From the sequence record PP430152.1: a stretch of DNA of 40,995 nucleotides; one strand, given 5' to 3'. This DNA is from Enterobacteria phage FtMidnight. A program made the position numbers and the translations under genes. Shown piece by piece: positions 35,168 through 35,631 of this stretch; position 1 is the stretch's first letter; each line of letters starts with the position of its first letter. Under the pieces are notes generated by a model. The model was given only the letters and a program-made list of their open reading frames with translations, had not been told where the DNA came from and did no database searches.

Positions 35168-35631
35168 GCTGTATTATTGACCATAGTAAGCGTAAGTCAT
35201 TGATAGTATTGGATTTAGTAAGGCTTACTATTTGCCAATAATATAACAACGCAAGCTGTAAAACAGTCAAAAAAGCTTGTAAGTCTTTGATTTATAAGGA
35301 AAAAACAGCAATCAGCACACAATAATTGTAAACCAACATCTAAATTAAAAATAAAATAATGGACTGAAAAGCATGAAAACCCCAGAACCTGAAAACTATC
35401 CCATTATTACTATTTTTATTTTTATATCTATATTATTATGTTTATTTATTTTATTTATTTATTTTTCAATACTTTAGCTCAATTACTTTCTAAATTATCC
35501 GTAAACCGTTTTGATTTTCTGAATAGTAAAATAATAGAATAATGGAAAAATCTATTTTTGACTTCAATTCTAAAAATTTACTATTTACTATTTACTATTT
35601 TCAGTTAGTAATGGAATAATGAAAATAATGC
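35168..35631. other. ~460 bp AT-rich non-coding region with short repeats; putative replication origin / regulatory hub
   Basis: no ORF of 60 aa or more on either strand; runs such as ttatttattttatttatttatttt; palindrome AGTAAG-gc-CTTACT (35218-35231); recurring TAATGGA at 35357, 35540, 35609. Confidence 0.4.
35577..35597. repeat. three perfect tandem copies of the 7-mer TTTACTA
   Basis: tttactatttactatttacta read directly at 35577-35597, 35 bp upstream of the -35 element of the next promoter. Confidence 0.8.

Follow-up and report, generated by a model that had tools for sequence, protein, structure and literature searches.

Replication origins served by self-loading primase-helicase initiators are known from phage P4 (alpha protein) and from the Staphylococcus aureus pathogenicity islands, or SaPIs (Rep and PriRep proteins), and an AT-rich region without genes in Enterobacteria phage FtMidnight (positions 35168–35631 of sequence record PP430152.1) is, on balance, probably a phage replication origin of the same type. 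Hereafter, the window designates the whole stretch of DNA that was analysed, i.e., the complete FtMidnight genome of 40,995 bp (46% GC overall). In P4, a single polypeptide combines a primase of the DnaG/toprim type, a helicase and a C-terminal winged-helix origin-binding domain, replication in the E. coli host is independent of DnaA, the origin carries direct and inverted copies of an octamer (TGTTCACC), and a second cis element, crr, lies several kb away; the work on P4 ori/crr and the alpha protein is reportedly that of Ziegelin/Lanka and of Yeo et al. Iteron-plasmid and chromosomal origins (oriC, pSC101, R6K gamma) feature a DNA-unwinding element (DUE), a site for the integration host factor (IHF) and initiator boxes, the plasmid repeats being 17–22 nt long, and the primary origin of T7 is an AT-rich tract of about 60 bp, devoid of iterons, through which upstream promoters transcribe. 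SaPI origins are located just downstream of rep and consist of six to twelve penta- or hexanucleotide iterons, with at least two on each side of a central AT-rich region and in opposite directions (PMC9371898). The self-loading Rep protein reads these iterons with a C-terminal winged helix, and both binds and melts the origin without ATP; PriRep5 is 797 aa long, its C-terminal domain starting near residue 682 (PMC9371898). Finally, the enzyme of phage NrS-1 carries a helicase ring of the SF3 type and initiates synthesis on a specific template sequence of 8 nt, two copies of which, near the genome centre, are the proposed origin (PMC7102993).

FtMidnight is a lytic siphovirus of E. coli and the sole known tailed phage needing the F pilus, hence of interest as an anti-plasmid tool; the corresponding paper deals with its tail proteins and receptor, and with nothing related to replication (bioRxiv 10.1101/2023.03.19.532758). 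No origin of FtMidnight or of its relatives is described in the searchable literature, and the one proposed here corresponds to a known kind of origin. This identification is supported by a unique melting minimum, a two-sided array of repeats, a core found across genera, a SaPI-like layout and an adjacent winged-helix paralog of the presumed initiator. Added interest comes from the cross-genus core, the IHF-like sites and the fact that this paralog is free-standing. An initial annotation of the sequence had already proposed an origin here; every test reported below left that proposal stronger or at least unharmed, and it is still from sequence that we infer the function.

Architecture of the gene-free region

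The region is the GC minimum of the window at every scale (24% over 460 bp; 5% over 60 bp, at 35403–35470), the next-lowest 60-bp segment elsewhere standing at 23%. Duplex-stability profiling based on nearest-neighbour energies, a check suggested in the initial annotation, likewise locates the least stable duplex of the genome in the AT tract (z about 5, range 4.7–5.2), which we propose as the DUE and which shows a loose 13-nt periodicity (TRF period 13, 4.4 copies). No open reading frame (ORF) of at least 60 aa occurs on either strand from 35123 to 35600, and this gap of 478 bp is the longest in the genome, followed by one of 118 bp. On the left, the element is bordered by an intrinsic terminator, 93–100% identical in the close relatives L003 and L005, which ends the small operon located behind the primase gene. 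On the right, it is followed by a sigma-70-type promoter, 96–97% identical in close relatives, that drives gp37 and the downstream genes (coordinates in Table 1). Everything that the initial annotation had listed was recovered, at the given positions or a few bases away: an ORF-free stretch of about 460 bp, an easily melted segment at 35405–35467, three tandem TTTACTA units, the promoter, and a location between the primase-helicase gene and the gene for a paralog of its C-terminus (gp37). Some boundaries were slightly shifted, e.g., with the terminator beginning at 35140 rather than 35141 and a palindrome at 35216 rather than 35218.

It is extremely improbable that the region encodes a product, be it a small RNA, as the initial annotation had alternatively suggested, or the 34-aa hydrophobic peptide (MKTPEPENYPIITIFIFISILLCLFILFIYFSIL) of the ORF at 35373–35477. 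This ORF is open in both FtMidnight and L003, with the same TAG end, and weak promoter-like hexamers do exist inside the region. Yet, there is no Rfam match at the gathering threshold, the folding energy is no better than that of shuffled sequences on either strand (z −0.64 and −0.89), and RNAalifold returns zero consensus pairs on either strand across 11 lineages, so that the small-RNA alternative was rejected for lack of support. Regarding the peptide, L005 no longer has its start codon, L006 has an interrupted frame and a different stop codon, and the 7 codon differences observed between FtMidnight and L003 (conserved part) are all non-synonymous. A T-rich strand is open and hydrophobic in translation in any frame. 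A small membrane-protein gene on the plus strand was thus rejected, as neither frame nor start is kept and synonymous bias is absent, and its decay in relatives identifies the ORF as a by-product of T-richness. With neither an RNA nor a peptide as its product, the element is conserved as a DNA sequence, as would suit a site of protein binding and melting.

The AT tract is flanked by copies of a short repeat, TTACTA/TAGTAA, of which there are nine in 464 bp, against 0.83 ± 0.89 expected (2000 dinucleotide shuffles of the region, none reaching nine). These represent nine of the 14 copies in the genome, the other five being dispersed over 40.5 kb and all in coding DNA, with no copy in the early divergent promoter region (31555–31624). 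Three copies lie to the left of the tract (35184 and 35216 on the minus strand, 35225 on the plus strand), one at its edge (35407, plus strand) and five to its right (35524 and 35606 on the minus strand; 35578, 35585 and 35592 on the plus strand). The number of copies thus falls within the six to twelve short iterons of SaPI-type origins, and, as in the latter, at least two stand on each side of the central AT-rich region, in opposite orientations. Two of the three tandem iterons are kept in L003, L005 and L006. A second motif, TAATGGA, which the initial annotation had described as recurrent, is indeed enriched, with three of its four genome copies in the region (P about 0.001, local shuffles), but L003 and L005, the closest relatives, conserve it at none of the three positions. 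Therefore, it is probably not a functional element and probably irrelevant here, and any function of TAATGGA would be specific to FtMidnight. The copies are found at 35357, 35540 and 35609, and AATAATGGA occurs twice.

No DnaA box (TTWTNCACA) is present at 35168–35631, even when one mismatch is allowed, and the whole genome has 76 matches for about 138 expected. This fits a start of replication that is phage-encoded and independent of the host initiator; a full replisome is encoded next door by the phage.

A core shared across genera

A megablast search of positions 34000–37000 against the phage collection yielded no match. Three close relatives were retrieved, one from IMG/VR scans and two more from exact-protein look-ups, and they share a homologous intergenic region in which conserved blocks (85–100% identity) alternate with variable blocks (61–68%). 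Because four-fold degenerate sites are still 80–90% identical between these phages, footprinting is weak at this distance, and it is the cross-genus comparison that carries the argument. The distant set is composed of Kakheti25, Epa40, PA73 and Ep028 (Septimatrevirus), VCLv11, Pfeifenkraut, Halfdan (filed under Lokivirus), RcTitan (Titanvirus), BREN6 and Kmi2C, all with an AT-rich gap at the equivalent place and either a primase 24–74% identical or a gp37 homolog 24–46% identical to those of FtMidnight. Over about 85–110 nt, the sequences align nearly without gaps, and successively show the AT tract, TCAA-NNNN-TTR, about 20 variable bases and (C)CGTA(T)AA. This core was observed in Septimatrevirus, Halfdan and Titanvirus, as well as in phages of Brenneria, Klebsiella, Variovorax and Xanthomonas. 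Used as an nhmmer profile, it has one significant match per genome, including in genomes outside the profile (E values, PA73: 7e-12; Ep028: 6e-13; Halfdan: 3e-7; Pfeifenkraut: 1e-4). Neither Sphingomonas phage Eidolon nor Achromobacter phage shaaii_LB5 gives a profile match, and that of Acinetobacter phage D0 is weak.

In all five other whole genomes tested, the core match coincides with the genome-wide GC minimum, even at 54–55% GC. Moreover, the match invariably follows the primase gene on the same strand, at a distance from the primase stop codon that ranges from about 170 bp (Halfdan) and about 470 bp (Epa40) to 966 bp in FtMidnight, where three small ORFs intervene, and about 3.9 kb in RcTitan. 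The short repeats around the core differ by lineage (TTACTAT in the FtMidnight lineage, GTATAAG/C in the Pseudomonas, Xanthomonas and Halfdan phages, GTAAWA in RcTitan), and they can be just as concentrated as in FtMidnight, e.g., TATAAGG in Halfdan, with 6 copies in 315 bp for 2 in the remaining 42.5 kb. Such lineage-specific repeats are what would be expected of iterons co-evolving with their reader.

The Acinetobacter phage mentioned above (L019, vB_AbaS_D0, Lokivirus in its record) has its replication genes placed directly behind that of the primase. A comparable AT-rich sequence lies there at 5250–5330 (profile hit with only E 0.22), between divergent genes ahead of the primase operon and in the opposite orientation; it contains ATAGTATAA repeats and a CTTGATTTTAAAGG block.

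Neither this conservation across relatives nor the presence of IHF-like sites had been noticed in the initial annotation. When the degenerate consensus WATCAANNNNTTR is scored on both strands of the whole genome, there are seven exact matches, two of which fall in these 464 bp (1% of the sequence), and a third site with one mismatch adjoins the AT tract (Table 1). At the position homologous to site 1, an exact match or one with a single mismatch is found in L003, L005, VCLv11, RcTitan and Epa40, and at the position of site 2, weak minus-strand matches to the core profile are found in six genomes. Site 3 is the most widely conserved position of the core: in the alignment of 11 lineages, its CAA and TT columns show little or no variation, unlike the four NNNN columns between them, a pattern that is expected of an IHF site and not of general sequence inertia. 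By consensus match, a putative AT-rich DUE with a putative IHF site, as in DnaA-type origins, is present. Further right, the conserved block ATCCGTAAACCG reads CGTATAAGG in the Pseudomonas-type relatives, where it is an iteron copy; a second GTAAACC occurs at 35328.

An IHF-like block with an AT-rich flank also recurs in inverted orientation, 100–250 bp to the left of the core, in six genomes (weak minus-strand profile hits), namely FtMidnight (35193–35205 and 35280–35292), L003, L007, L009, L011 and L015. Hence, the element looks like a partial inverted duplication around a variable spacer.

Clustered hexamers together with IHF-consensus sites might also suggest a pac site, since short repeats accompany an IHF site in both P1 pac and lambda cosB, and the repeats would then be recognised by the small terminase of a headful-packaging phage, as for P1. 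As repeats flanking an IHF site are common to origins and pac sites, their presence does not discriminate between the two. The cluster of RcTitan, which is related, is circularly permuted and packages by headful (PMC8601537), which implies that a pac site must exist somewhere. In FtMidnight, the ORF at 1–483 and the 533-aa ORF at 461–2062, at the head of the structural module, are read as candidate terminase subunits from their position. Known pac sites lie in or beside terS, whereas the element is 5.4 kb upstream of the candidate small-terminase gene in FtMidnight (6–8 kb in Halfdan, RcTitan and Kakheti25), with 15–25 genes between it and the terminase genes in each genome considered. It also travels with the replication module, and pac sites do not feature long AT tracts that melt easily, which altogether makes a packaging function very unlikely.

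The promoter is part of the conserved arrangement as well, since a TTGACA-N17-TAnnnT promoter directed away from the element closes it in nearly all these phages (Epa40, VCLv11, Kakheti25, PA73, Halfdan and Kmi2C). IHF sites being common in phage promoter control, the region could be devoted to transcription, with the repeats as operators for either gp37 or the helix-turn-helix (HTH) protein encoded at 31625–31876, and with IHF bending the DNA so as to time the promoter at 35632. The latter could start a rightward middle/late unit, and such a role could coexist with that of an origin. A near-consensus sigma-70-type promoter does abut the element, the HTH gene located ahead of the primase gene is conserved, and autoregulation is plausible for gp37, a winged-helix protein made from this very promoter. 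Nevertheless, we regard transcription control as an unlikely explanation of the whole. The AT tract lies 165–230 bp upstream of the −35 hexamer, which is too distant for an UP element, the array of repeats spans about 430 bp, and its motif is missing from the other promoter regions of the genome. Furthermore, Kakheti25, PA73 and Halfdan keep the element even though the gene that follows is short and those records gave no gp37 match. Lastly, the 60-bp tract of 5% GC, which is the melting minimum in six genomes out of six, would be left unexplained.

Candidate initiator and proposed mode of initiation

The protein that we propose as the initiator is composed of an archaeo-eukaryotic primase (AEP) primase-polymerase domain, a helix-bundle domain (HBD), a DUF3987 P-loop helicase and, at residues 666–778 approximately, a C-terminal domain (about 110 aa). 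It matches NrS1-1_pol-like_HBD and DUF3987 in Pfam and phrog_3022 (DNA primase, E 2e-286), and its best match among solved structures is PriRep5 of SaPI5 (PDB 7OLA, E 3.5e-34, residues 5–245), followed by the NrS-1 primase. It features a helicase fused to a primase and a C-terminal winged-helix DNA-binding domain, as needed for an initiator of this type. Between FtMidnight and Kakheti25, the C-terminal domain is the most diverged of the folded domains (60% identity vs. 78–80% for the primase and helicase domains), which fits a change of DNA specificity. In Pseudomonas phage PSV3 (L002, OP712466), the primase-helicase is annotated as four coding sequences at 5001–7685, and the tblastn match is split into 3–4 pieces that span about 360 bp more than in relatives; assembly-error frameshifts or an insertion could account for this split.

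The adjacent gp37 is a candidate for an origin-binding accessory protein or regulator. P4 is not known to have a free-standing paralog of the winged helix of its initiator, and none came up in the texts on SaPIs or NrS-1 (PMC9371898, PMC7102993). At 50% identity, the gp37 family forms about 106 clusters. Its members are free-standing, about 200 aa long and without any Pfam domain, and are built from an N-terminal alpha/beta domain and the C-terminal winged helix that is common to the C-terminus of the primase-helicase. A few occur as fusions to longer proteins (P0039, 362 aa; P0090, 480 aa; P0104, 481 aa; P0105, 796 aa).

Among the known systems, SaPI5 PriRep5 is similar in that it, too, fuses an AEP primase to a helicase, totals about 780–800 aa and ends in a domain of about 110 aa; the two primase domains are homologous. 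The origin is likewise downstream of the gene and on the same strand, lacks DnaA boxes, and has short iterons (5–6 nt) on both sides of a central AT-rich region, in opposite orientations; the C-terminal winged helix, which is the iteron reader in SaPIs, is the proposed reader in FtMidnight. In contrast, homology was detected in the primase domain only, the FtMidnight helicase being a DUF3987 domain, and the element is about 1 kb from the gene. Moreover, FtMidnight is not a satellite but a virulent siphovirus of a Gram-negative host, with its own polymerase and an adjacent paralog (gp37), and its three IHF-consensus sites and cross-genus core are both features that are not described for SaPIs (PMC9371898).

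With NrS-1, a phage of deep-sea vents, FtMidnight shares homologous primase-polymerase and HBD domains, but no AT-rich element flanked by iterons is described there, and the NrS-1 enzyme itself acts as the replicative polymerase, a role taken in FtMidnight by a separate polymerase with its clamp. The likeness to P4 is one of layout: both have a primase, a helicase and a C-terminal winged helix in one protein, short direct and inverted repeats, and (presumably, for FtMidnight) DnaA-independent replication in E. coli, but the primase is of the DnaG/toprim type in P4 and of the AEP type in FtMidnight, and P4 needs crr. The loosely 13-nt-periodic DUE, the neighbouring IHF-consensus sites and the arrays of repeats are reminiscent of oriC, pSC101 and R6K gamma, from which FtMidnight differs by its lack of DnaA boxes, its 6–7-nt repeats and a presumed initiator that is a helicase-primase instead of a RepA- or pi-type protein. 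As to T7, another virulent phage, it similarly associates an AT-rich tract of about 60 bp and a promoter beside early replication genes, but the FtMidnight promoter is downstream of the tract and directed away from it, and iteron-like repeats are present.

Initiation might proceed as follows. The winged-helix C-terminal domain of the primase-helicase would read the TTACTA(T) repeats on either side of the AT tract, while host IHF would bend the DNA at the three WATCAANNNNTTR sites. The 60-bp tract of 5% GC would then melt, so that the helicase domains, as rings, could self-load onto the opened strands, and the AEP primase domain would lay the first primers for the phage polymerase and clamp. 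Produced from the promoter abutting the origin, gp37 may compete for the same sites or reshape them, thereby modulating initiation, and transcription from this adjacent promoter may also aid opening.

Several observations weigh against an origin of this type. First, the 7-bp spacing of the tandem units is unusual for iterons, and the Pseudomonas-type relatives carry most of their repeats in direct orientation. Second, the element is not always immediately downstream of the primase gene, as it is in SaPIs, the distances in FtMidnight and RcTitan being cases in point, and the homology to PriRep5 is limited to the primase domain. Third, FtMidnight and Kakheti25 have different repeats but hardly differ in the putative recognition region GATNAIKRALKTLCERGDL, and the helix IKRALKTLCERGDL of the C-terminal domain is almost unchanged between phages with different repeats. 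Since the recognition region is nearly constant and the repeats are not, the reader of the variable repeats may be another protein. Fourth, the IHF sites are assigned by matches to a degenerate consensus only. Fifth, the searchable literature holds no experimental replication data or origin mapping for FtMidnight or any relative. Finally, the cumulative GC skew, a check also suggested in the initial annotation, gives a mixed picture. In FtMidnight, it falls through the plus-strand primase operon and turns at 35747, beside the element and well away (4 kb) from the point where gene orientation switches, which is suggestive, but the signal is weak, and the core is not the site of such a turn in Halfdan, PA73 or Ep028, where the skew minimum corresponds to the divergent promoter or lies elsewhere. 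Being confounded by the direction of transcription, the GC skew does not decide the origin question.

A broader view, which we consider doubtful although conceivable, is that pilus- and flagellum-associated siphoviruses share one origin made of a fixed core bent by IHF and of fast-evolving iterons, with gp37 as a dedicated origin-binding switch. The group may include Septimatrevirus, Halfdan, Titanvirus and the FtMidnight-, Kmi2C- and BREN6-like phages, and the core may be kept across hosts with 37–55% genomic GC while the iterons set lineage specificity. In that case, gp37 could block re-initiation by competing with the primase-helicase, or hand over to recombination-dependent or rolling-circle replication.

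A defined origin and its initiator would constitute a minimal replicon for engineering FtMidnight and its phage-therapy relatives of Pseudomonas, Xanthomonas and Stenotrophomonas, as well as a counterpart, in virulent phages of Gram-negative bacteria, to the self-loading primase-helicase systems of SaPIs and P4. Besides, a constant core with diverging iterons offers a natural series of origins for studying the evolution of initiator specificity, and the core profile makes it possible to annotate this element across several hundred related genomes.

Genomic setting and feature coordinates

The structural module of FtMidnight is encoded on the plus strand and the replication module on the minus strand, the latter including the polymerase, a clamp-like processivity factor, a helicase, a Cas4-type exonuclease, a single-stranded DNA-binding protein (SSB), Sak4 and MazG. 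From 31.6 kb onwards, genes are again on the plus strand, in the following order: the small conserved HTH gene, the primase-helicase gene, three small genes, the region under study, gp37 and the rest. All features of the region are listed in Table 1.

Table 1. Features of the candidate origin of FtMidnight and of the genes on either side (positions in the window; a dot in the strand column indicates a feature without orientation).
Feature	Position	Strand	Remarks
Primase-helicase gene, 778 aa, proposed initiator	31866–34202	+	Pfam, phrog and PDB matches
Intrinsic terminator	35140–35167	+	Stem-loop 35140–35162, 8-bp stem with 5 GC pairs, then T8
Iteron copy	35184–35189	-	TTACTA
IHF-consensus site 1, TATCAATGACTTA	35193–35205	-	Exact match to WATCAANNNNTTR
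Palindrome of two inverted iterons, TAGTAAGG/CTTACTA	35216–35231	.	Arms kept, centre variable in L003 and L005
IHF-consensus site 2, AATCAAAGACTTA	35280–35292	-	Exact match to WATCAANNNNTTR
AT tract, proposed DNA-unwinding element	35405–35467	.	5% GC over 60 bp; least stable duplex
Iteron copy	35407–35412	+	Left edge of AT tract
IHF-like site 3, TTTCAATACTTTA	35464–35476	+	One mismatch; right edge of AT tract
Conserved block ATCCGTAAACCG	35497–35508	+	Alignment of relatives
Iteron copy	35524–35529	-	TTACTA
Three tandem iterons, TTTACTA x3	35576–35600	+	Period 7, 3.6 copies, 100% identical
Iteron copy	35606–35611	-	TTACTA
Sigma-70-type promoter	35632–35660	+	TTGACA-17-TAAAGT, 10/12 matches; directed away from element
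gp37 (FtMidnight_37), 219 aa	35704–36363	+	N-terminal alpha/beta domain and C-terminal winged helix, paralogous to primase C-terminus

Other signals were observed around these genes. Directly after the primase gene, there is a terminator (34233–34250) followed by a promoter-like site (34274–34302), and the 61-bp gap after gp37 contains a near-perfect promoter (TTGACA-17-TATTAT, 11/12 matches, 36360–36388), so that the early region appears to be split into several short transcription units. The second-largest ORF-free gap of the genome (34774–34891) is located between two small genes of the preceding operon; it is G+C-rich and kept in L003.

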